From positions 23,758-87,757 of the forward strand of contig JBAZWG010000001.1 of assembly GCA_041660505.1 (NCBI GenBank): a stretch of DNA of 64,000 nt, in the 5' to 3' direction. Shown here piece after piece: positions 6,717-60,131 of the stretch. The position numbers and the translations under genes were made by a program. The DNA comes from Minisyncoccota bacterium. GTDB lineage: Bacteria; Patescibacteriota; Minisyncoccia; Phycocordibacterales; JACRKE01. Position 1 is the first letter of the stretch. Every line of letters begins with the position of its first letter. The notes beneath the pieces were generated by a model. That model had not been told where the DNA came from. It was given only the letters and a program-made list of their open reading frames with translations, and did not search any database.

Positions 6717-7475
6717 ATGTCTAAATACTATTCAGGCAAACGCAGTAGAAATATTTATGAATCCGACTCGAAGACACCGTTCCGTTTGAGCCGTTCTAAA
6801 ATAGATTTATTTTTAAACTGTAAGCGCTGTTTCTATCTAGACAGAAAGCTTGGCGTTGGTCAACCGCCCGGATACCCTTTCAGTCTTAACTCTGCCGTTG
6901 ATACTTTATTAAAAAAAGAATTTGATATTCACCGTGCCGCACATACGCCACATCCGATGATGTCGGCTTACGGCTTGGATGCTATTCCATTTCATCATGA
7001 GAAGATGGATGAGTGGCGCGACGCGCTACGCGGAGGCATTACATATACTGATCCGGAAACTAACTTCTATGTCACAGGCGGAGTTGATGATGTCTGGCGT
7101 CATGCACCGGAAGGCCAGCTCATAATAGTAGACTATAAGGCCACGTCTAAGACGTCTGAAGTATCGTTGGATGCCGACTGGCAGATCGGTTACAAACGCC
7201 AAATGGAAGTGTACCAATGGCTCTTCCGTATGAACGGCTTCGATGTATCCGAAACAGGCTACTTCGTCTACTGCAACGGCGATACCGACAAAGAAGCCTT
7301 CGACGGTAAACTTGAGTTCAATATCAAGCTCATTCCATATAAAGGCGACCCGAGCTGGATACCTCAAACGCTCAAAGATATCAAATCGTGTCTCGAATCC
7401 GCAGATTTGCCAGATTCGAGTCCTGATTGCGACTATTGTCTATATAGAAAGCTAACTAAAGAATATGAAAGGTAA
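6717..7475 (+). CDS. PD-(D/E)XK nuclease, RecB/Cas4-like with Cys pairs
   Basis: GGVDDVW ... IIVDYKATSK ... RQMEVYQWL (D / DxK / QxxxY motifs of RecB-family nucleases). N-terminal CKRC and C-terminal CDYC. Start 3 nt after the methyltransferase stop. Confidence 0.7.
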   Translation: MSKYYSGKRSRNIYESDSKTPFRLSRSKIDLFLNCKRCFYLDRKLGVGQPPGYPFSLNSAVDTLLKKEFDIHRAAHTPHPMMSAYGLDAIPFHHEKMDEWRDALRGGITYTDPETNFYVTGGVDDVWRHAPEGQLIIVDYKATSKTSEVSLDADWQIGYKRQMEVYQWLFRMNGFDVSETGYFVYCNGDTDKEAFDGKLEFNIKLIPYKGDPSWIPQTLKDIKSCLESADLPDSSPDCDYCLYRKLTKEYER

Positions 7476-7617
7476 TACGTATACCAAAGCAGGTAAAAAA
7501 CAAGGCCGGCCGGCATTCCGCACCGCGTCAGTCTATCGCAATAACAAAGGCGTGAAGACTCGCGCGATAAAAGCCTCGTTCAACGGCTTCAGCGGGAATC
7601 AAAAATTTCCAAAATAA
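7465..7617 (+). CDS. Possible small basic protein (50 aa), unannotated
   Basis: MKGNTYTKAGKKQGRPAFRTASVYRNNKGVKTRAIKASFNGFSGNQKFPK. Overlaps the end of the nuclease gene in another frame. Below the ORF-track size cutoff. Confidence 0.2.
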   Translation: MKGNTYTKAGKKQGRPAFRTASVYRNNKGVKTRAIKASFNGFSGNQKFPK

Positions 7618-7622
7618 CCTTC

Positions 7623-7653
7623 AAATAGAGAGTTGAACTCTCTGAAATTAAGG
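7623..7653. repeat. REP-like palindrome family 1, copy 1 (core agagagttgaactctct)
   Basis: Perfect 8-1-8 palindrome with conserved trailing aaattaagg. One of 4 copies in the window. Confidence 0.85.
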
Positions 7654-7669
7654 ATAAAATAACTATTAC

Positions 7670-7960
7670 ATGAGCATACTATTGATTGTAGGAATAATTA
7701 TAAATACAATGGCTTTTGGAGTAATGGGGTTTCGTAATCAGAAACTAGGCATAAAAGTACCAAAAATATTGCTAAGAGAAATATTTAATATTCCAATTAC
7801 TGTTATTTACTATTTGAGTTTTGTAGTGATTTTACTTTCTCCTGATAGTTGGCTACAAAAAATAATAATAGCTTTATCAATGCAATTTTTGATTAACCAC
7901 ATTATCTGGGGATCTATAACTGGTATTGTTGCGGGTATAATAGTACGAAGGAATAAATAA
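7670..7960 (+). CDS. Small membrane protein (hypothetical) between REP copies
   Basis: 96 aa with 3 predicted TM segments. AT-rich. Bracketed by REP copies 1 and 2. Confidence 0.45.
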   Translation: MSILLIVGIIINTMAFGVMGFRNQKLGIKVPKILLREIFNIPITVIYYLSFVVILLSPDSWLQKIIIALSMQFLINHIIWGSITGIVAGIIVRRNK

Positions 7961-7985
7961 TAAGTAGTAATTCAGACTTTTCCAC

Positions 7986-8016
7986 AACTAGAGAGTTCAA
8001 CTCTCTATAATAAGGC
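7986..8016. repeat. REP-like palindrome family 1, copy 2 (centre base flipped: agagagttcaactctct)
   Basis: Same element with trailing ataataagg, 32 bp upstream of the transposase start. Confidence 0.85.
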
Positions 8017-8037
8017 TTTTTGTGATAAACTGATTTT

Positions 8038-8664
8038 ATGGACAGGGCACCAATTGAAGAAGACACATTTCATCATGTTTATAACCGTGGCGTTGATAAG
8101 CGAACGATCTTCGAAGACGACGCAGACCATCGAAGATTTATCCTATACCTGAATGTCTTGAATGACACACAGATTGAGAGCCCAAACACCTTTGAGGCGC
8201 TCGAGCGACGACATAAAGATTCACCACTTGGCGAGCGGTTGGTGAATATTTGCGCATTCTGTCTTATGCCTAACCATTTTCATCTATTGCTACACGAGCG
8301 TACACCTGGAGGAATAAGCAAATTTATGCAAAGACTGGGGACAGCATACACACTATATTTCAATGAGAAACATAAACGGAGCGGTGCATTGTTCCAGGGC
8401 AGATACAAAAACCGAATTATTGACGACGAGGAGTACTTGCTCCATGTCATTGATTATATACATTGCAATCCTAATTCAATCGCCGGAGTCGAGGAATATT
8501 TATGGTCCAGCTACCATGATTTTTGCGGAAGCAAAAAGTTTAAACAATTACTGGGAACAGATGTATTATCCGAGTTTACCGAAATTCCAAAGAACTATGC
8601 TTCTTGGTTAAGGTCGCGAGGCAATTTTTCTGAAATAAAGCATATTACGATCGATGAAAGCTAA
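8038..8664 (+). CDS. IS200-like / REP-associated tyrosine transposase (Y1 HUH, RAYT), copy 1
   Basis: HHVYNRG ... NHFHLLLH (HuH) ... GRYKNRIIDDEEYLLHVIDYIHCNP (catalytic Tyr region), about 208 aa. Confidence 0.85.
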   Translation: MDRAPIEEDTFHHVYNRGVDKRTIFEDDADHRRFILYLNVLNDTQIESPNTFEALERRHKDSPLGERLVNICAFCLMPNHFHLLLHERTPGGISKFMQRLGTAYTLYFNEKHKRSGALFQGRYKNRIIDDEEYLLHVIDYIHCNPNSIAGVEEYLWSSYHDFCGSKKFKQLLGTDVLSEFTEIPKNYASWLRSRGNFSEIKHITIDES

Positions 8665-8674
8665 AATATCCTTT

Positions 8675-8705
8675 AAATAGAGAGTTGAACTCTCTAGGAT
8701 AAGGT
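8675..8705. repeat. REP-like palindrome family 1, copy 3
   Basis: aaatagagagttgaactctctaggataagg. Overlaps the stop of the minus-strand DUF218 gene. Confidence 0.85.
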
Positions 8706-9333: not shown

Positions 9334-10611
9334 ATGAACGCGTATAAGCCAGTAGTCACGAGCGTTGTATCCGGCGTAGTCGGAGCGCTCATCGTGTTTC
9401 TCGGGGGTCTTTGGTTGTTATCGACTAACCCCCTATTGTTTATTAACTTGTTCGGTAACCCAAAATCAGTAAGCGCAACAGCAAGCAGTACGCCGGAGAA
9501 TACAGTAAAAAATATTTTCTCCAAAGAAATATACACTCAAGAATCATTTGTTATCGATACGGTCAAAGCAACAAAGGGTGCCGTGGTATCAATAGTGATA
9601 TCCAAAGACGTACCGGTAATGGAACAGTATTATAGCCAGGTGCCTGGGATTGATCCGAATGATCCATTCGCACAGCTCTTTGGCGGTGGATTTAATTTTC
9701 AGATCCCCCAGCTTCGCCAGAACGGCACTAAACTGCAACAAGTCGGTGCGGGCTCCGGGTTCATTGTTTCGCCAGACGGTCTTATTATTACCAACAAACA
9801 CGTGGTGGCCGACAAGACGGCGGAGTATGCCGTGTTCCTAAACGATGGCAAGAAATATGCGGCGAAGGTTGTCGCTCGAGACCCTGTTAATGATCTCGCC
9901 GTTCTCAAAATTGGGGGGGTAAAATTACCCTATCTCAAATTCGCAAACTCCGACGCCATACAGGTTGGCCAGACCGCTATCGCTATCGGTAATGCGCTCG
10001 GCCAATTCAATAATACGGTCTCGGTTGGCGTTGTGTCGGGCTTAGCTCGCTCGGTCACGGCCGGAAACATGTCGGGCATGTCGGAACAGCTCGATAACGT
10101 TATCCAAACCGACGCGGCGATTAACCCCGGTAACTCCGGCGGGCCGCTCCTAAATCTCGACGGCCGTGTAATCGGCGTGAATGTCGCCGTGGCCCAAGGT
10201 TCGCAAAATATCGGTTTCTCATTACCTGCTAATCTTGCAAAGAGCGTCGTCGATTCGGTACAGAAGAATGCAGGCAAGATAATTCGCCCATACCTTGGGA
10301 TTCGCTACACCGCGGTTACGCCGGAACTTAAAGATGCGAATCATCTGATGGTTGACTATGGTATGCTCGTGCTCCGCGGAAGTTCTAAAGACGAGCTCGC
10401 CGTGGCCCCGGGCTCACCGGCTGACAAAGCCGGTATCCTCGAGAATGACATAATTCTCGAAGCCGACGGCAAGAAATTAACAAGCGACGTCAGCCTGTCT
10501 AATCTGGTTCGTGATCACAAGGTCGGCGACACTATGGCACTCAAGGTATTAAGTAAGGGTACGACCAAGACTGTGAAGATTAAGCTAGAGGCAATCCCGA
10601 CATTGCAGTAA
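9334..10611 (+). CDS. htrA: HtrA/DegP-family trypsin-like serine protease with PDZ domain
   Basis: TNKHVV (His), DLAVLKI (Asp), GNSGGPLLN (Ser) catalytic motifs. C-terminal PDZ. N-terminal TM. Confidence 0.9.
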   Translation: MNAYKPVVTSVVSGVVGALIVFLGGLWLLSTNPLLFINLFGNPKSVSATASSTPENTVKNIFSKEIYTQESFVIDTVKATKGAVVSIVISKDVPVMEQYYSQVPGIDPNDPFAQLFGGGFNFQIPQLRQNGTKLQQVGAGSGFIVSPDGLIITNKHVVADKTAEYAVFLNDGKKYAAKVVARDPVNDLAVLKIGGVKLPYLKFANSDAIQVGQTAIAIGNALGQFNNTVSVGVVSGLARSVTAGNMSGMSEQLDNVIQTDAAINPGNSGGPLLNLDGRVIGVNVAVAQGSQNIGFSLPANLAKSVVDSVQKNAGKIIRPYLGIRYTAVTPELKDANHLMVDYGMLVLRGSSKDELAVAPGSPADKAGILENDIILEADGKKLTSDVSLSNLVRDHKVGDTMALKVLSKGTTKTVKIKLEAIPTLQ

Positions 10612-10668
10612 AACACAAGACCGCCTTCTGCGAATTTCGAGAAGGCGGTCTTGTGTTTTTGATTTTGT
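10612..10668 (+). terminator. Strong intrinsic terminator (18-bp perfect stem)
   Basis: aacacaagaccgccttct...agaaggcggtcttgtgtt followed by tttgattttg. Sits between convergent genes. Confidence 0.8.
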
Positions 10669-12045: not shown

Positions 12046-12052
12046 CTAATGG

Positions 12053-12097
12053 CACACAAGGCGGTCTTCTGGGGCTCGCAGAAAACCGCCTTGTGTG
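12053..12097 (+). terminator. Hairpin downstream of sod (13-bp stem, no clear U-run)
   Basis: cacacaaggcggt...accgccttgtgtg. Shares the 10-mer aggcggtctt with the 10612 terminator. Confidence 0.4.
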
Positions 12098-12107
12098 ACA
12101 AAAATAT

Positions 12108-23665: not shown

Positions 23666-23932
23666 CTAGTGGGCAAACACAAATTTCTCCACTTTGTCCA
23701 CTCTTTCTACTAATTCCTCGTGATCGAGAGTACTTACAGAGTTTACTTTAAGAAAAGCGACGTCGCGTTTGACCTGTGTCATATCTGCTTCCAGATTTTG
23801 CAGACGCTCGTCAACCTTGTCTAATCTCTGATTAACGCCAGAAAATCCGTTCGCCATCATGACGGCAAGTTTGTCTACGGTCTCCTCGATATGACTTATT
23901 TTTTCTTCGGATGCTTCGCTCATAACCATCAT
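23666..23932 (-). CDS. Small coiled-coil protein (hypothetical), paralog of 48850..49119
   Basis: About 89 aa from the MMVMSEASEEK start. Shares ...QVKRDVAFLK.../...HEELVERVDKVEKF with the 48850 ORF (KVKQDVEFIR / HEDLRSRVGKIESK). Confidence 0.5.
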   Translation of the reverse strand: MMVMSEASEEKISHIEETVDKLAVMMANGFSGVNQRLDKVDERLQNLEADMTQVKRDVAFLKVNSVSTLDHEELVERVDKVEKFVFAH

Positions 23933-24068
23933 GATACTCCAGAGCAAAAATATAACAAGTTGATAACAAAAAACCGCCCGGAGGCGGCTTCTTGGTTCCA
24001 GAGGTTGAACCTTTCCTACCCCCGGCAGGCGCGGTTGATGCTTAAGGTTCAACTTCTTCCAGTCTTTA

Positions 24069-24434
24069 TTATAACTTAAGATCTGCCATGGCTTCATCGA
24101 CCGTCTTGGTCGGTGTAGTCTGGGTGTTCTGTAGCGGGCGGTTCTCTATGCCGACACCCAAATCGTCTTTCTTAATACCGCCTGTGCCGCCTATCGGTTC
24201 GTTGATCTTAAGATTAACACGAGCGTTATTCTTGAGGCCGACAATGCGGAGCAAAGTGCGGATAGCCTTGGCGGTGTTGCCACTGCGACCGATTATCTTA
24301 CCCATGTCCTCCGGATGCACATCGAGCGTGAGCAATACGCCCATCTCGTCAACTGTCCTGTTCACCTTCACTGACTCCGGATGATCTGCAAGCGCCTTAA
24401 TGATACTCTCCAGAAATACCTGATCTTGTTCCAT
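24069..24434 (-). CDS. KH-domain RNA-binding protein (UPF0109/YlqC-like)
   Basis: GKIIGRSGNTAKAIRTLL KH GXXG loop. Sits in the conserved position after rpsP. Confidence 0.8.
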   Translation of the reverse strand: MEQDQVFLESIIKALADHPESVKVNRTVDEMGVLLTLDVHPEDMGKIIGRSGNTAKAIRTLLRIVGLKNNARVNLKINEPIGGTGGIKKDDLGVGIENRPLQNTQTTPTKTVDEAMADLKL

Positions 24435-27250: not shown

Positions 27251-27338
27251 ACGCCCTATTCACGCACGAAAACTCCGGTCAATCACTGACCGGAGTTGCA
27301 GTTTCCATGACATTTTAAAAACATTAATTAATACTAAT

Positions 27339-27372
27339 ACATCATTTCTGTGCTATAGCAGATATCTGATGT
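27339..27372. promoter_or_regulatory. Composite palindrome ACATCAT-N5-TGCTATAGCA-N6-TGATGT (copy 1)
   Basis: Outer 6-bp inverted arms around a perfect inner 10-bp palindrome. Second copy at 27960-27993 on the other side of the PaaX-like gene. Confidence 0.4.
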
Positions 27373-27380
27373 AATAGTAG

Positions 27381-27941
27381 TTAGTTGAGTTTGAAGTGGT
27401 CGCGCAATTTATTATCGGGCGAGATATCGGAGCGCATATAATAGACATGTTCCGGAATATCGAAGTAGTTAATAACAAAATTGATCTCATTTTCACAATC
27501 GAACGGAAATACAAAAACGCTTTTCTGGAACTCCTTGAATCCAAGTCTTTTTAGAGTGTGCCTTAGCGCGTCACGCGTCCTTTTGCTCTCTTCTGGAACA
27601 TCGAACAAAACTACGCGCCAGCGACCGTCCCACTTCTTCTTCGGCTTAAGCTTTAAATTTTTGAACTCCTGGTCTAGGAAATATGCCCTCCCTTTATTCG
27701 TAAGGCGCACCTCCTCAAGATTATTCGTCTTTATCCGCTCAACAAGTCCGCGCGCTTGATAGCGTTCGAGTAATACATAGAGCTTCTTGCGATCGATCTT
27801 ATACCAGATCTTATCGCAAACATTAGCCATTCGCCTACGCTCATAGTTCGTTCGTTGAAAAGCGAGAAAAGACTTAGCCGCCAATAGTGAAAGTATTTGA
27901 AATGAAAACTTGGTCGAGTCTTTAATGTCTTTGACTATCAT
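27381..27941 (-). CDS. PaaX-like winged-helix regulator (wHTH + Cas2-like C-terminal fold)
   Basis: KWDGRWRVVLFDVPEESKRTRDALRHTLKRLGFKEFQKSVFVFP resembles the PaaX C-terminal region. N-terminal HTH-like segment. Confidence 0.55.
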   Translation of the reverse strand: MIVKDIKDSTKFSFQILSLLAAKSFLAFQRTNYERRRMANVCDKIWYKIDRKKLYVLLERYQARGLVERIKTNNLEEVRLTNKGRAYFLDQEFKNLKLKPKKKWDGRWRVVLFDVPEESKRTRDALRHTLKRLGFKEFQKSVFVFPFDCENEINFVINYFDIPEHVYYMRSDISPDNKLRDHFKLN

Positions 27942-27959
27942 AATTCGATTCTATCAACT

Positions 27960-27993
27960 ACATCATCCCTCTGCTATAGCAACGAAGTGATGT
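27960..27993. promoter_or_regulatory. Composite palindrome copy 2, extended by outer tatcaac/gttgata arms (27952-28001)
   Basis: ACATCATccctcTGCTATAGCAacgaagTGATGT immediately upstream of the PaaX-like start. Candidate operator. Confidence 0.4.
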
Positions 27994-28027
27994 ATGTTGA
28001 TAACTGGAGAAACGGGGGCGGGGCGGG

Positions 28028-36195: not shown

Positions 36196-36227
36196 AATTT
36201 TGAGTTTTAAGGTTCAACCTTTACCAG

Positions 36228-44758: not shown

Positions 44759-44806
44759 GTCGAAATTTATTGTACCCCAGAATTCAAAAAGGTTCAAGCA
44801 AAACAA

Positions 44807-44842
44807 GAGGTTCGACCTTTTAGATGCTCAAGGTCGAACCTC
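44807..44842 (-). terminator. Palindromic terminator family gaggttcgacctt / aaggtcgaacctc (copy 1), downstream of rpmF
   Basis: 13-bp perfect stem with A-run on the plus strand upstream (U-run for the minus transcript). Near-identical copy at 60067-60102. Confidence 0.65.
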
Positions 44843-44860
44843 TAAACGTGAGTGGAAAAA

Positions 44861-48100: not shown

Positions 48101-48388
48101 GGAATTACAATCACAAGCATAAAGGCGCAGACCGACGGCGCGGTCGTGGCCTTCGGCGGGCTCATAGAAGAGCTCAAGGCGATATTTACAAAGAAGGGCG
48201 ACCACATGGCGTTCATGAAAGTGTCGGACTTTACCAACCAAATCGAGGTTGTCGTCTTCCCCAAAGTGCTTGAAGAATTCAAAGCAATAGCCATACCCGA
48301 AAAATGTGTGGCCATCCGTGGCCGCCTCTCATTCCGCAACGGTGAACCGAGCATAATTGCGAGCGCGTTCAAGAGCCTTGACGAATAA
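45179..48388 (+). CDS. dnaE: DNA polymerase III alpha subunit
   Basis: PHP domain FVHLHTHSHYSLLDG. Palm/fingers motifs. About 1070 aa from the ATG at 45179. Confidence 0.95.
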   Translation: MSYTAYTMRPFVHLHTHSHYSLLDGLSKTEELIRLAKQYEMPALAVTDHGNMYGAIEFYQYCKKKDIKPIFGFEAYVANRTRFDKQPGIDNKRYHLTLLAENFTGYKNLMKLVTKSSLEGYYYKPRVDKELLKECAEGLICLSGCLGSELGRAVQSGDEAEAYRVIDEYQNIFGKDNYYLEIMAHDSIADVKTMREFIIRASKKTGIPLVATQDSHYLHKDDKHAHETLLAINTDGTTTDANRYSFGEMDGSFINGDEAYELFKDTPEACDNTLKIAERCNVELTLGKFIFPNFPLPEGKSADDFLREKTFAGIERRGLTGKPEVVERLEYELGIIKMKGYAAYFHVVEDLIRFATERNIYSNIRGSVAGSMTTYLLGITKIDPLVYKIPFERFLNPERPSAPDIDMDFADNRREEVLEYTKEKYGHDYVAQVGTFGTMLARGSVRDVARALGHPYILGDSISKLIPLGSQGFPMTIEHAFEVEPELQKMYDADPKVKDIIDIAKKLEGCVRHVSVHAAGVVIAPNPLIEYAPLQLDPKGGKIITQYDMYTVGEDGVGLTKFDFLGIRNLSILADAVRIVKAVRNEDIDIEAIPLDDKKTFQMLARGETMGLFQLNGQGMTKFLKDLKATSIHDINAMVALYRPGPIQFIPEYIKRKHNPELVSYLDPALEKILKQTYGILVYQDDLLMMAHDLAGYSWGEVDKFRKAVGKKIPAEMEAQKEKFIKGCVAVSKWPQKKAEEIWAWIEPFAAYGFNKAHSASYGRVAYQTSYMKANFPAEYMTAVLTAESGDVDEVAAVIDECKRMKIPVLPPSINESLGDFAVVKKASGDEIRFGLYTIKNLGTEIANSIIENRTEHGFFKSLADFFDRVRHKNLNKKSLEALIKSGAMDELGERGAMIFNLDDALQYNKEAASTAHQSSLFGLLDEPHVAAALTLKLAPPATLMEKLAWEKELLGLYISGHPLEKHREKFEKSGITITSIKAQTDGAVVAFGGLIEELKAIFTKKGDHMAFMKVSDFTNQIEVVVFPKVLEEFKAIAIPEKCVAIRGRLSFRNGEPSIIASAFKSLDE

Positions 48389-48435
48389 TAAATACTATTG
48401 TAGCTTGTCGAAAGAAGCGGGAAGAGTGAGTTGTC

Positions 48436-48654
48436 ATGGCAAATCTATTCGGAGCCGTGTCGATGATTCTACTGGGAATTTCCGGTTTCGCTGCTGGAGT
48501 TTCGGTCATGGACCATGCTGGTGGTGCTGAATTTATCAACGCAATCAGCAGCCGTGCATGGTTCTGGGAGGTGATAACGCTAACGTTTTTCATCATGGGC
48601 GCGTTCCTGCATGTAATCGCCCTCAACGAGATGTTGAAACCTCGTGGGCGATAG
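48436..48654 (+). CDS. Small membrane protein (hypothetical, 72 aa)
   Basis: Two TM segments. Immediately followed by the 53-bp terminator-like element B. Confidence 0.4.
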   Translation: MANLFGAVSMILLGISGFAAGVSVMDHAGGAEFINAISSRAWFWEVITLTFFIMGAFLHVIALNEMLKPRGR

Positions 48655-48665
48655 CTCTTTTCATA

Positions 48666-48718
48666 GCTGCCGGAGGAAGTTGTCTTAACACCGCTTCCAA
48701 GGGCAGCTTTCTTCGTTT
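48666..48718 (+). terminator. 53-bp terminator-like element B (identical to C)
   Basis: agctgccggaggaagttgtcttaacaccgcttccaagggcagctttcttcgtt. Nested stems agctgcc/ggcagct and ggaag/cttcc, then a U-rich tail. Confidence 0.65.
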
Positions 48719-48726
48719 ATATTAAT

Positions 48727-48757
48727 ACTTAGAGAGCTGAACTCTCTAAAATAGGGG
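48727..48757. repeat. REP-like palindrome family 1, copy 4 (agagagctgaactctct, one mismatch)
   Basis: Same element and trailing aaaatagg context as the copies at 7.6-8.7 kb, 40 kb away. Confidence 0.8.
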
Positions 48758-48849
48758 TTTTTGCAGATTGCATTTGCTTGATGCGCAAGTTGTGTGTCTT
48801 GAAATCTTTTCCACTTCCTAAACCTTCAGTTCAGAGCTAAAATAACTGA

Positions 48850-49119
48850 ATGAAAACCGAGGACCTGGCAGTCATGATAAAAAAGCAATTCGACGTTATG
48901 GGTATGCAACTCAGAAATATTGATTATGGGATAGAAAAACTTGAGGTCAAGAACGACAACCTCGAGAACCAATTGACACAGGTTCGAGCCGATCTAACGA
49001 AAGTAAAACAGGATGTTGAGTTCATCCGTGAAAACAATGTGTTTAAAATCGAACACGAGGACTTACGGTCGCGCGTAGGAAAGATTGAATCGAAACTCAA
49101 GCTTCGTTTGAAGGTTTAG
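48850..49119 (+). CDS. Small coiled-coil protein, paralog of 23666..23932
   Basis: 89 aa, heptad-rich. Shared KVKQDVEFIRENN / HEDLRSRVGKIESK blocks. Confidence 0.5.
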   Translation: MKTEDLAVMIKKQFDVMGMQLRNIDYGIEKLEVKNDNLENQLTQVRADLTKVKQDVEFIRENNVFKIEHEDLRSRVGKIESKLKLRLKV

Positions 49120-49224
49120 CTCGCTGAATCTCCCACCCCAAAAAGTTTAGGGACTATTTCAGCTTGACGAATAACATATTTTATATTAATTTCATTGTTA
49201 ATGATGTAGGGATAGGAGGTGAAC

Positions 49225-49380
49225 ATGATCTGTGTAGTGAAGGTGAATTATCCCAAATGCAAGAAGTGTGGCTGTGATACAGAGCGCACCGGAGGATGGC
49301 GAGGCGATGTTGGTCTCGATTACCTTCGATGTACAAAGTGCGGCCACAAACAAACTAGCCGGGTTTATACCTGGCGATGA
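49225..49380 (+). CDS. Zinc-ribbon mini-protein (51 aa), unannotated
   Basis: MICVVKVNYPKCKKCGCDTERTGGWRGDVGLDYLRCTKCGHKQTSRVYTWR with CxxC...CxxC. SD ggaggt upstream. Followed by element C. Confidence 0.35.
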   Translation: MICVVKVNYPKCKKCGCDTERTGGWRGDVGLDYLRCTKCGHKQTSRVYTWR

Positions 49381-49396
49381 CCGTGTTGCAGCACCA

Positions 49397-49449
49397 AGCT
49401 GCCGGAGGAAGTTGTCTTAACACCGCTTCCAAGGGCAGCTTTCTTCGTT
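49397..49449 (+). terminator. 53-bp terminator-like element C (identical to B)
   Basis: Exact 53-bp repeat of 48666-48718. Confidence 0.65.
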
Positions 49450-49471
49450 AGACCTTATTATTAGCCAAGTT

Positions 49472-49490
49472 ATCAACACCGAGTGTTGAT
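49472..49490. repeat. Palindrome family 2 (atcaacac-cga-gtgttgat), 5' copy
   Basis: 8-bp perfect arms with a 3-nt loop, about 22 bp upstream of the second transposase ATG. Confidence 0.8.
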
Positions 49491-49512
49491 ATTTCGTGAT
49501 ATACTCTCAAGT

Positions 49513-50193
49513 ATGAGAGTTATTGAAATTTGCGAGGATGAGTACTACCATGTTTTGAATCGAGGAATTAATAAGCAAAAAATCTTTCTTGATGATCGAG
49601 ACCGTGCTCGGTTTTTATTTCTTATCTTGTTTTTGCAGTCTCCTGCCCTGGTAAATAATATGAGTGATTTCGCCGCGAGATTTACAGATCTTATTCTTGC
49701 TGATGAATACAACATACTTGCGGTGAAAGAACTAGATGAACTTTGGAATAAAATGAAGGAGTCGAGGTGTGTGGAGCTCCTGGCGTTTGCACTTATGGGG
49801 AACCACTTTCATATCGCCGTTCATGCACTCAAGGATTCAGGAATAGCAACCTATTTGCAACGAGTGCAGAACGCGTATACAAAATACTTTAATATAAAAC
49901 ACGATCGGACGGGACATTTATTCCAGGGACCATACAAAGTCGTACACCAACCAGACGACGAACGTCTCATGATGCTTACTGCGTATATCCACCATAACCC
50001 GAATGAGGTTTTAGATAGTAGAGCTGAAGTTGAAGCATTCAAATGGTCTAGCTACCAGGATTACCACAACAATAATCGCTGGGGCGAGTTATTAAAGCCA
50101 GAAATAGTACTCGAACAATTTTCCAATCCCGCGGAATACCTAGAATTCGTTAACGATGGCAACGTAAAATCAACACCGAGTGTTGATAAATAG
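49513..50193 (+). CDS. IS200-like / REP-associated tyrosine transposase (Y1 HUH), copy 2
   Basis: YYHVLNRG ... GNHFHIAVH (HuH) ... GPYKVVHQPDDERLMMLTAYIHHNP (Tyr region). Diverged from copy 1. Confidence 0.85.
   Translation: MRVIEICEDEYYHVLNRGINKQKIFLDDRDRARFLFLILFLQSPALVNNMSDFAARFTDLILADEYNILAVKELDELWNKMKESRCVELLAFALMGNHFHIAVHALKDSGIATYLQRVQNAYTKYFNIKHDRTGHLFQGPYKVVHQPDDERLMMLTAYIHHNPNEVLDSRAEVEAFKWSSYQDYHNNNRWGELLKPEIVLEQFSNPAEYLEFVNDGNVKSTPSVDK
50169..50187. repeat. Palindrome family 2, 3' copy (inside the last codons of the transposase)
   Basis: Identical atcaacaccgagtgttgat. Confidence 0.8.
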
Positions 50194-50277
50194 AGCTTGC
50201 AAAGGGCTATGTCGGTGCTAGACTTTATACAGCCCTGCTCTTTTCGAACGATGAGAGCATGATTGTAGGAGGTCAGC

Positions 50278-50550
50278 TTGAGCCAGATGTTCGAATATCA
50301 CGAGGTCATCGAGACTCTTGCCCGACAAAGCCGGAAGATCTCGAAAGAAATTCCGTTGGAGGACCAACGGGCTGTGCTCTCGGCAATTTCTAGGTTCGAG
50401 ACCGTTCATGGCCGTGGTGCAGTGCTCGACGTTATCTGTGCCGCATCGCGAGCCGGCAAGTTGCACGAATGCCTGAAAGCGCTCGACGCAGTGACAGACT
50501 CACCCTCGTTGCTAAACGATGTTTGTCGGCAACTGGGACTCGTTCGATGA
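50278..50550 (+). CDS. Hypothetical protein (90 aa), GC-rich orphan; TTG start
   Basis: SD gtaggaggt 9 nt upstream. High GC relative to flanks. Confidence 0.4.
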   Translation: MSQMFEYHEVIETLARQSRKISKEIPLEDQRAVLSAISRFETVHGRGAVLDVICAASRAGKLHECLKALDAVTDSPSLLNDVCRQLGLVR

Positions 50551-50692
50551 TTATCTTGGCAGGTTAAGGGGGAGCCTGTCGAAAGTACAAATCCCCCAAC
50601 CCACAAAGAACGCGTCCATGTGACGTGTTTTTTGTTTCTATTTGTCTATATATAGATATCTGCTATTATGGTGTGACACTAATTTAAATACT

Positions 50693-52438
50693 ATGGAACC
50701 AGAAAAATTGCAGAACATTCGCCATACGCTTGCTCACCTTATGGCACAGGCTGTTAAGGAGCTCTATCCGAACGCACAACTTACGCTTGGCCCGGCTATT
50801 GATACGGGGTTTTATTATGACATTGACTTTGGTGCCGACAAATTATCGGACGCTGATCTACCGAAAATAGAGAAACTGATGCGCAAGAACCTCCAGAATT
50901 GGAAAGAATTCACTCATCAAGAAGTAGACGAGGCGGGTGCAGAAAAAGCTTTTGCCGGTAATCAGTACAAACTTGAACTGGTTAAAGAAATTTCTGAACG
51001 CGGGGAGAAGATCACCCTATACACCTGCGGTAATTTTACAGACCTTTGCCGTGGCGGACACGCAGAAAATCCGTCCAAGGATATTGCACCGGACTCGTTC
51101 AAACTCGATCGTATTGCCGGGGCCTATTGGCGCGGAAGCGAGAAGAACCCTATGCTCACCAGAATCTACGGTCTGGCCTTCGAGTCAAAACCAGCGCTAG
51201 ACATGCATCTCACAATGCTCGAAGAGGCCAAAAAACGCGACCATCGTAAACTCGGCAAAGAACTGGAACTGTTTATGATCGCCGACGAAGTCGGTCCAGG
51301 TTTACCGATGTTCTACCCGAAAGGCGCAATTTTACGCCGACTTATCGAGAACTACATTATTGAAGAACAAGAGGCAAGGGGCTACGTTCCCATCTGGATT
51401 CCACATATTACAAAGGGCAAGCTCTATGAAATTTCCGGCCATTTGTCGAAATACGATGCGATGTACAATCCAATGCACATTGACGACGACGACTATTACC
51501 TTAAGCCGATGAATTGCCCGCACTTCATGATGCTCTATAAGTCACTCCCGCATTCATACAAAGAACTCCCATTACGATACACTTGTACTACTACAAATTA
51601 CCGCTATGAGAAGTCCGGCGAGCTCTCTGGCCTCACGCGCGTGCGAGCCCTCACACAAGACGACTGTCATGTGTTCTGTATGCCGGACCAGATTGAGAAT
51701 GAAATTAAGCTGATGCTCGAGATGATCGGCAACGCATATCATGTCTTCAAAATTACCGACTTCTGGGTGCGCATTTCACTTAGAGATTCTAAGGATAAAT
51801 CAAAGTACCTTGGCGACGACGATGTTTGGAATAAAGCGGAAGACGCCTTACGCAAGGTAGTGAAGGCATCCGGCTGGAAATATAAAGAAGCGGAGAATGA
51901 AGCGGCCTTCTATGGTCCCAAGCTTGACTTCATGATGAAGGATGCTATCGGCCGTGAGTGGCAAATCTCCACAATCCAACTCGACTTCAACCTGCCTAAG
52001 CGTTTCGAGCTGGAATATACCTCTAACACTGGCACAAAAGAACAACCCGTGGTGATTCACAGAGCAATCCTTGGCTCTACAGAGCGTTTTATGGGAGTAC
52101 TCATAGAGCACCTAGCCGGTAACTTCCCCACTTGGCTCTCGCCGATACAGGTTGCCATATTGCCAATCTCCGATAAGCATTTGGAATATTCAAAAAAGGT
52201 CGCCGAGAGCCTCCGAGCTTCTGGTGTCCGTGTGGAGCTTAATGAAGATAACGATACTTTGGGCAAGAAGATACGCAATGCGAAAGGTACAAAAGTGCCT
52301 TACATGCTAGTCATCGGCGATGCGGAGGTTAACGACAAAACTATTACGGTAGAGCATCGTGACAAAGGTAAGGTCGGCGCACAATCCGTCGCCGAATTCA
52401 TTGCGAATATTACTGACGAAATTAAAAATCGTAATTAA
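50693..52438 (+). CDS. thrS: Threonyl-tRNA synthetase (lacks N-terminal TGS domain)
   Basis: Editing-domain start IRHTLAHLMAQAV...GFYYDIDFG. Class II motifs. Anticodon-binding C-terminus. Confidence 0.95.
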   Translation: MEPEKLQNIRHTLAHLMAQAVKELYPNAQLTLGPAIDTGFYYDIDFGADKLSDADLPKIEKLMRKNLQNWKEFTHQEVDEAGAEKAFAGNQYKLELVKEISERGEKITLYTCGNFTDLCRGGHAENPSKDIAPDSFKLDRIAGAYWRGSEKNPMLTRIYGLAFESKPALDMHLTMLEEAKKRDHRKLGKELELFMIADEVGPGLPMFYPKGAILRRLIENYIIEEQEARGYVPIWIPHITKGKLYEISGHLSKYDAMYNPMHIDDDDYYLKPMNCPHFMMLYKSLPHSYKELPLRYTCTTTNYRYEKSGELSGLTRVRALTQDDCHVFCMPDQIENEIKLMLEMIGNAYHVFKITDFWVRISLRDSKDKSKYLGDDDVWNKAEDALRKVVKASGWKYKEAENEAAFYGPKLDFMMKDAIGREWQISTIQLDFNLPKRFELEYTSNTGTKEQPVVIHRAILGSTERFMGVLIEHLAGNFPTWLSPIQVAILPISDKHLEYSKKVAESLRASGVRVELNEDNDTLGKKIRNAKGTKVPYMLVIGDAEVNDKTITVEHRDKGKVGAQSVAEFIANITDEIKNRN

Positions 52439-59954: not shown

Positions 59955-60066
59955 AGGTTACAACATATTAACACGTTTCAATCTTTTAGACATCCGGTGT
60001 TGCTAAAATTGAGCCTGTAAAGAGTATGGGATGGAATATACTTGCCATGTTTTTGTAAACAAAAAA

Positions 60067-60102
60067 GAGGTTCGACCTTTTGGATGCCTAAGGTCGAACC
60101 TC
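60067..60102 (-). terminator. Palindromic terminator family gaggttcgacctt (copy 2), downstream of the DUF5679 gene
   Basis: Same 13-bp stem as 44807-44842. A-run on the plus-strand 5' side. Confidence 0.65.
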
Positions 60103-60131
60103 TGGATTCTGTCTACTAAGTAACAGCTCTG

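Follow-up and report, generated by a model that had tools for sequence, protein, structure and literature searches.

The 64-kb window analysed here (64,000 nucleotides (nt) of contig JBAZWG010000001.1, to which all positions refer) harbors an accessory islet, inserted at the ancestral junction of dnaE and thrS in a genome of the Paceibacterota, ultra-small bacteria of the Candidate Phyla Radiation (CPR). The core of the islet is, on balance, probably a REPtron-like unit, i.e. a low-copy gene for a class-2 TnpA_Y1 nuclease accompanied by its cognate hairpins. The system is a variant of the theme known from repetitive extragenic palindromes (REPs) and REP-associated tyrosine transposases (RAYTs) rather than a separate kind of system, and the pairing of gene and hairpin is typical of a large CPR gene family, well beyond this window. 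Coordinates of the features are collected in Table 1.

The gene in question (49513-50193) is the second Y1 gene of the window. Its product scores 33.1 bits against the Pfam family Y1_Tnp (PF01797), that of the first Y1 gene (8038-8664) 38.4 bits, both above the cut-off of 23; the two proteins share 35% identity. About 190 relatives with 42-54% identity were found among 5.8 billion proteins, nearly all of them from Patescibacteria and either unnamed or denoted as 'transposase'. The family is characterized by the motifs NHFH, LFQGP, YIHxNP, and WSS. H98, H100, and Y158 are invariant in the family alignment (22 sequences), and the tyrosine motif of the Y---NP type, YIHxNP, is kept across the family and reads YIHHNP in the window gene. 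The public record of the gene gives a protein of 177 amino acids (aa) (P0001). Because the conserved N-terminus of the family, MR.I.I..GEYYH..NRG, begins at ATG 49513, the annotation was corrected by moving the start to this codon, which yields 226 aa.

For the 226-aa protein, a TnpA-type fold is predicted by an AlphaFold2 model built from the family alignment (predicted local distance difference test 87.5, predicted template modelling score 0.87). The best match of the model in the PDB, as found with Foldseek, is 4ER8, the Escherichia coli TnpA_REP protein bound to a REP hairpin (E 9e-5). The entries 4ER8, 2XM3, 2XO6, 2VJV, and 2A6M were all matched with probability 1.00, the complexes of ISDra2 and IS608 TnpA with their hairpins ranking after 4ER8. 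ISDra2 TnpA is also reached, weakly, by a sequence profile. In the modelled structure, the HUH strand is preceded by a helical insertion, and the protein is extended at its C-terminus.

At both its ends, the second Y1 gene carries the same hairpin, ATCAACAC-cga-GTGTTGAT, with a stem of 8 bp and a loop of 3 nt. In the whole window there are just two exact copies of the corresponding 19-mer, ATCAACACCGAGTGTTGAT (49472-49490 and 50169-50187), which agree in strand and loop; 100 shuffles gave a mean of 0.01 matches. The upstream copy ends 22 nt before ATG 49513 and the downstream copy lies within the last codons, precisely as an earlier sequence-only reading of this DNA had described. Ordinary intrinsic terminators were considered as an explanation for the hairpins and rejected: no T-tract follows the downstream copy, the upstream one lies ahead of the promoter, and both share one sequence that is specific for their locus.

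To what extent this arrangement is shared was determined with 80 homologous loci from metagenomes (93 loci were fetched in all). In an unbiased repeat test, 155 nt around the start codon were compared with 126 nt around the stop codon for exact repeats of at least 12 nt in direct or inverted orientation; 51 of the 67 evaluable homologous genes were positive, against 3 of 139 control open reading frames (ORFs) from the same loci. A stricter test, demanding a perfect stem of at least 7 bp with the same arm in at least two zones, detected hairpins at 32 of 67 genes and at none of 133 controls. The hairpins of the family possess 3-nt loops and stems of 8-22 bp, the sequence of which varies between loci and matches within a locus. 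The two most similar genes (L006 and L017, 88%) differ by a compensatory change in the stem, GTTAGAA...TTCTAAC in one and GTTGGAA...TTCCAAC in the other.

A further copy is frequently found inside the gene. When whole ORF interiors were scanned for exact matches of at least 12 nt to their own flanks, 24 of 78 genes (~30%) contained an internal copy, compared with 5 of 107 controls. In 22 of these 24 genes the match starts at nt +153 to +193, i.e. at codons 52-65, in-frame and before the HUH motif, and this holds for both sub-clades. The site falls, according to the model, into the helical insertion preceding the HUH strand. In the clade of the window gene, the internal copy encodes the conserved peptide KHRVFN (AAACAC-CGN-GTGTTT); the window gene itself is devoid of an internal hairpin copy. 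Some loci without a cognate copy (L016, L017, L025, L046, and L058) show an unrelated AT-rich hairpin at the same site.

The 19-mer of the window was also searched for in 596 Gb of sequence comprising one genome per species, the source genome not included. Four exact copies reside on one 444-kb Saccharibacteria contig (CAZYXJ010000001.1). Three of them (L001-L003) are intergenic, with stems extended to at least 15 bp; the fourth (L004, 7095-7115) lies in-frame in a 226-aa homolog of 45% identity, where it encodes DQHRVLI. Variants of the palindrome flank this homolog 33 nt before its ATG and across its stop codon. A single match in Alphaproteobacteria (L005) was discarded, as by our own estimate 2-4 chance matches are expected in 596 Gb.

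An alternative explanation is an autonomous, minimal insertion sequence of the IS200 type. According to this explanation, the 717-bp unit 49471-50188 would be mobile, with the hairpins as its left and right ends, and would have transposed into the dnaE-thrS spacer. IS200 is about 0.7 kb long, and the unit comes close to this size; moreover, it is located in an inserted islet of low GC content, both hairpins share strand and orientation as in IS608 and ISDra2, solo hairpins are rare, the fold also matches the TnpA proteins of IS608 and ISDra2, and two divergent Y1 genes are present within 64 kb. Other observations speak against it. An all-against-all BLASTN comparison of gene plus flanks from the 80 loci yielded no near-identical genes in different contexts; instead, the closest pairs, several in number, are syntenic with flanks of 67-75% identity, and the protein clusters were seen on single contigs. 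No near-identical copy of the Y1 gene is present in the window, no relatives of the protein were found on viral contigs, and plasmids gave only generic 'transposase' matches of 24-32% identity. Across the family, the loop of the downstream hairpin is inverted relative to that of the upstream one in 15 loci, and both run in the same direction in 11 (manual count). The protein itself differs as well, exhibiting the Y---NP motif of class 2 instead of Y---Q of class 1 (PMC6006769) and 226 aa with extra domains instead of about 150 aa. An IS200-like element is therefore rather unlikely, and the sequence comparisons indicate that the Y1 unit behaves as a resident, vertically inherited gene and not as an actively copying insertion sequence. 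RAYTs in general are described as resident genes with vertical inheritance (PMC5581495).

The position of the upstream hairpin may point to a connection with transcription. It sits at the -35 position, just 5' of an extended -10-like box, TGaTATACT, and the closeness of this box to ATG 49513 suggests a leaderless transcript with the hairpin in place of a -35 element. Across the family, the upstream hairpin ends at a median of 23 nt before the ATG. A -10-like hexamer is found in the gap between hairpin and ATG in 27 of 45 loci, compared with 43 of 131 controls, and in 16 of these 27 loci it ends 6-9 nt before the start codon.

These observations are shared by a second alternative, a domesticated protein acting purely as a regulator. 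Here, the palindromes would represent a double-stranded operator or insulator, the protein would, through its C-terminal helical domain, repress the leaderless promoter of its own gene and mark the 3' end, and neither DNA cleavage nor spreading of hairpins would occur any longer. Besides the placement of the hairpin over the -35 region, beside the extended -10 box and the leaderless start, the very small number of dispersed copies and the vertical, syntenic inheritance fit such a role, as does the report of helix-turn-helix-like C-terminal extensions for proteins of the subclass 2.1 type (PMC6006769). Against a pure regulator speak, on the other hand, the HUH histidines and the tyrosine, which are invariant across the family. 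With 8-22 bp of perfect pairing, the stems differ in length from copy to copy, a pattern typical of selection on base pairing and not of half-site recognition; solo intergenic copies exist (REP family 1 at 48730, L001-L003); and the in-frame copy at codons 52-65 in ~30% of the genes has no obvious function as an operator. A purely regulatory role is thus considered unlikely.

For the REPtron-like reading, we infer the following course of events. By analogy with E. coli TnpA_REP and the TnpA proteins of IS608 and ISDra2, the nuclease would recognise its hairpin in single-stranded DNA and would cleave and rejoin the adjacent DNA. Cleavage and rejoining may occasionally seed solo hairpins, e.g. 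the REP1 copy at 48730 and the three intergenic copies of the Saccharibacteria contig, and would keep the hairpin copies at the own gene identical. Through the upstream hairpin at the -35 position of the putative leaderless promoter, the protein probably controls or insulates transcription of its own gene.

TnpA_Y1 proteins have been divided into 12 subclasses (Quentin et al. 2018, PMC6006769). Class-2 genes, defined by Y---NP, are low-copy, and in five of their subclasses the genes lie between REPs that are specific for the subclass and carry a GT[AG]G foot; atypical flanking structures occur in subclass 2.6 and class 3, and a genome can contain several divergent tnpA_REP genes, each with its own REP family (PMC6006769). 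CPR genomes lie outside this survey, and no description of Y1/REP systems in CPR was found in the literature searched. With the REPtron of E. coli, the CPR system shares the HUH/Y1 fold (target-normalised TM-score 0.61 to 4ER8), the Y---NP motif, a gene bracketed by cognate palindromes, and a low copy number with divergent paralogs that have palindromes of their own. In contrast to E. coli TnpA_REP (165 aa, ~10% identity in the structural alignment), the CPR protein comprises 226 aa, including the helical insertion and the C-terminal extension. The hairpins differ, too: E. coli REPs number in the hundreds, whereas the CPR hairpins combine a perfect stem of 8-22 bp with a loop of 3 nt, do not carry the GT[AG]G foot, and have at most a handful of dispersed copies.

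Within class 2, as judged by motif inspection only, the family shares NH[YF]H, FQ, Y[IV]HxNP, a WSS tail, and a size of ~220-240 aa with subclass 2.1 (Bertels group 1, which includes the TIRYTs), for which NH[YF]H, FQ, Y[IV]HLNP, an SS tail, and about 238 aa are given (PMC6006769). Some members of subclass 2.1 have terminal inverted repeats, whereas most CPR members have hairpins at both ends. Subclass 2.4 from cyanobacteria and Bacteroidetes also harbors a cognate palindrome in-frame inside tnpA_REP, leaving the reading frame undisrupted (PMC6006769), but the internal copies of the CPR genes occupy a different and much more fixed site. With IS200, IS608, and ISDra2 (class 1.1), the common traits are the order hairpin-tnpA-hairpin within ~0.7 kb, an upstream hairpin just before the promoter or start, and the catalytic fold; subterminal hairpins at both ends are a feature of the IS200/IS605 group as a whole. 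Unlike these elements, whose TnpA consists of the core of ~150 aa with Y---Q, the CPR genes are not multi-copy. No conserved target or cleavage tetranucleotide was detected in the CPR family, and instead of distinct, imperfect left and right ends, one perfect palindrome is present twice.

Several observations weigh against placing the unit among REPtrons. The NCBIfam equivalog for REP-associated tyrosine transposases, NF047646 (REP_Tyr_transpos), is missed by a wide margin by both Y1 proteins of the window (29.8 and 49.9 bits, cut-off 80), and subclass 2.1, which the CPR family resembles by its motifs, is reported to be REP-free. About 100 hairpins displayed no GT[AG]G or other conserved foot tetranucleotide beside their stems. 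High-copy intergenic palindromes were not found in the sequence covered: palindrome 2 has no dispersed copy in the window, only 5 extra copies outside the gene were counted in ~263 kb of homolog flanks, and 3 on the Saccharibacteria contig, so that a 'REP population' may barely exist. In the window, both copies point the same way, as do the ends of IS200/IS605 elements, and a dimer bound to a double-stranded operator would account for perfect palindromes equally well.

The first Y1 gene of the window provides a second example of a gene with its own hairpin. REP family 1 (motif TAGAGAGTTSAACTCTCTA) is found at 7626, 7989 (inverted), 8678, and 48730, the first three copies bracketing the first Y1 gene together with a 96-aa membrane ORF. 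The distant copy in the dnaE-thrS islet carries one mismatch in the inner stem. It is regarded as a true member of REP1, because the tag AAAAWANCCYT beside its hairpin is common to the three copies at 7.6-8.7 kb. Only one or two REP1 copies lie away from their own gene within 64 kb. The flanking hairpins are inverted at the first Y1 gene and direct at the second. As at the second locus, orphan small ORFs adjoin the unit, namely a Lys/Arg-rich 50-aa ORF (7465-7617) and the 96-aa membrane ORF (7670-7960), both next to REP1 copies; the proteins of the two loci are unrelated. The sequence-only reading had recognised two diverged Y1 genes, each with a cognate hairpin, and this pairing recurs in the homologous loci. 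Its proposal of two independently active REP/RAYT systems stands as far as the two gene-hairpin pairs are concerned; few dispersed copies and the lack of near-identical gene copies do not speak for activity.

The islet is flanked on the left by a 1116-aa ORF for the alpha subunit of DNA polymerase III and on the right by the gene of threonyl-tRNA synthetase (ThrRS). In four relatives with ~70% identical ThrRS (L089, L091, L092, and L093), dnaE and thrS are separated by just 36, 213, 38, and 36 nt. Since both genes are adjacent there, the 2.3 kb between them represent an insertion, in agreement with the hotspot claimed earlier; the closest ThrRS relatives (72%) have thrS in another context. Across 48650-50300, the GC content of 0.39-0.44 is lower than that of the flanks (about 0.48-0.52). 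Among the relatives, the stretch from thrS to gyrB differs as well: genes for GmrSD_N and HEPN proteins are located at 7749-9278 of L092 (Parcubacteria LiPW_30), and small unknown ORFs follow thrS in L089, L091, and L093. This variability marks the neighbourhood as a general hotspot for accessory genes.

The remainder of the islet would be orphan cargo, made up of three small genes together with a terminator-like hairpin that is present twice, as elements B and C. All components that the sequence-only reading had listed were recovered where it had placed them, including the 72-aa and 51-aa ORFs, the fourth REP1 copy, the coiled-coil paralog, and B and C, which agree at 53 of 53 positions. The 72-aa ORF belongs to no Pfam or NCBIfam family and has no relative in the 93 fetched loci, and the 90-aa ORF 50278-50550 likewise has no family in Pfam or NCBIfam. 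For the 89-aa coiled-coil protein, a search of 5.8 billion proteins returned only the protein itself; for the 51-aa zinc-ribbon ORF, an exhaustive HMMER search gave two weak matches (E 1.5e-4 and 4.2e-4). Neither the small ORFs nor B/C recur in the 93 fetched loci. Over 75 aa, the coiled-coil ORF shares 35% identity with the gene at 23666 (BLASTP, E 4e-11), which is situated between a KH-domain gene and trmD. In its listed form (23666-24097, minus strand, 143 aa) the latter ORF is over-extended, as its upstream part contains a repeat doublet and the terminator GCCGCCtccGGGCGGTTTTTT; the gene probably starts at ATG 23932 and encodes 88 aa. The notion of duplicated small-gene cassettes did not hold: the one repeated item is the 53-nt hairpin B/C, and for the coiled-coil gene there is a single distant paralog.

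B and C each form a strong, interrupted hairpin (-22.3 kcal/mol, z -3.5), behind which lies the T-rich sequence TTTCTTCGTT, and close the first and the third of the small genes. With a period of 732 bp from B to C, they most likely go back to the insertion or duplication of a small module with the same terminator. Rfam gave nothing at E<=1 within 48300-50700. The view that B/C serve a cassette array as attC-like sites of recombination is unsupported: there are only two copies, a recombinase was not seen, and the structure is terminator-like. As exact short repeats, B/C and palindrome 2 could confuse a short-read assembler, and the region might accordingly be the product of mis-joining at the 53-nt elements or at the palindromes, or contain chance repeats. 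This is extremely improbable, considering that the architecture of gene and hairpins recurs in dozens of independent assemblies from different projects, all ORFs are intact, the repeats far exceed chance, and the contig extends over 719 kb.

Table 1. Features of the dnaE-thrS islet, the second Y1 unit, and the related elements in the 64-kb window
Feature	Position	Strand	Details
Accessory islet, dnaE-thrS junction	48389-50692	.	2.3 kb; dnaE stop 48388, thrS ATG 50693
Hydrophobic orphan ORF, 72 aa, two helices	48436-48654	+	from the ORF list
Element B, imperfect terminator-like hairpin with T-rich tail	48665-48717	+	53/53 identical to C
Dispersed REP1 copy, hairpin 48730-48748 with asymmetric tag	48730-48762	-	82% identity over 33 nt to the reference copy
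Coiled-coil orphan gene, 89 aa	48850-49119	+	paralog of 23669-23932 (-)
Zinc-ribbon-like orphan gene, 51 aa, CxxC...CxxC	49225-49380	+	strong ribosome-binding site (Shine-Dalgarno) AGGAGGTG
Element C, identical to B	49397-49449	+	53/53
Upstream cognate hairpin TATCAACAC-cga-GTGTTGATA	49471-49491	+	-9.3 kcal/mol, z -3.9
Extended -10-like box TGaTATACT	49497-49505	+	7 nt before ATG; putative leaderless promoter
Y1 HUH nuclease gene, 226 aa, RAYT-like, class-2 TnpA_Y1	49513-50193	+	NHFH at aa 97-100; Y158 in YIHHNP
Downstream cognate hairpin, within last codons	50169-50187	+	encodes the last residues STPSVD
ORF of unknown function, 90 aa	50278-50550	+	GC-richer, 0.50-0.55
Terminator-like hairpin at islet end	50603-50635	+	followed by thrS promoter-like site 50642-50669
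First Y1 gene, 208 aa, cognate to REP family 1	8038-8664	+	Pfam 38.4 bits
Three REP1 copies: 7626-7644, 7989-8007 (inverted), 8678-8696	7626-8696	.	bracket 96-aa membrane ORF and first Y1 gene
Coiled-coil paralog, about 88 aa	23669-23932	-	own start after terminator
Repeat strings named beside B/C and AGAGGTTCGACCTT: ATCAACACNNNGTGTTGAT, TAGAGAGTNNNACTCTCTA			

Other palindromes are scattered over the window. A third palindromic family forms REPIN-like doublets, AGAGGTTCGACCTT-N10-AAGGTCGAACCTCT, at 44806-44843 and 60066-60103, with a degenerate version at 24000-24057 and a single unit at 36209-36221. The doublets fold to -22.8 and -25.0 kcal/mol (z -5.7 and -6.4), and one copy is located in a divergent region upstream of dnaE. 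In its half-site, the family is similar to the AAGGT-nnn-ACCTT hairpins found in the other Y1 sub-clade; a third, cognate Y1 gene is absent from the window. The ORF 27381-27941 (minus strand) codes for a 186-aa protein with the central Cas2-like domain of PaaX (Pfam PaaX_M 7.5e-23; Cas2 3.8e-5) and is bracketed by 37-nt inverted repeats (27337-27373 and 27959-27995) that are themselves palindromic, TACATCA...TGCTATAGCA...TGATGTA. ORF and repeats constitute another unit of a gene with flanking palindromes. Finally, two related long, perfect or near-perfect inverted repeats (ACACAAGRCSGYCTTCT ...) at 10610-10659 and 12050-12100 look like copies of one bidirectional terminator hairpin.

A more far-reaching idea is that of Y1 nuclease genes which, throughout the CPR, are 'self-addressed', with their own hairpin at the promoter, at the 3' end, and, in ~30% of the members, at codons 52-65, and with the own locus as the main substrate. 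We regard this idea as quite unlikely. The sameness of all copies within a locus, with stems drifting between lineages, would imply active homogenising or switching. If the idea were true, the nuclease might cut and rejoin, toggle, or repair its own gene, with almost no extragenic REPs, and would represent a minimal RAYT system. Most intriguing is the concerted upkeep of hairpins that are identical at three places, namely the promoter, codons 52-65, and the stop codon.

For annotation, the family accounts for the recurrent 'transposase' calls and the perfect palindromes in metagenome-assembled genomes of CPR bacteria. The role of RAYT-type, domesticated Y1 nucleases for their hosts is unsettled, and these proteins are usually studied in genomes with hundreds of REPs. 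The CPR family is a stripped-down case, in which hairpin recognition, autoregulation, and the concerted evolution of gene-borne hairpins may be addressed.

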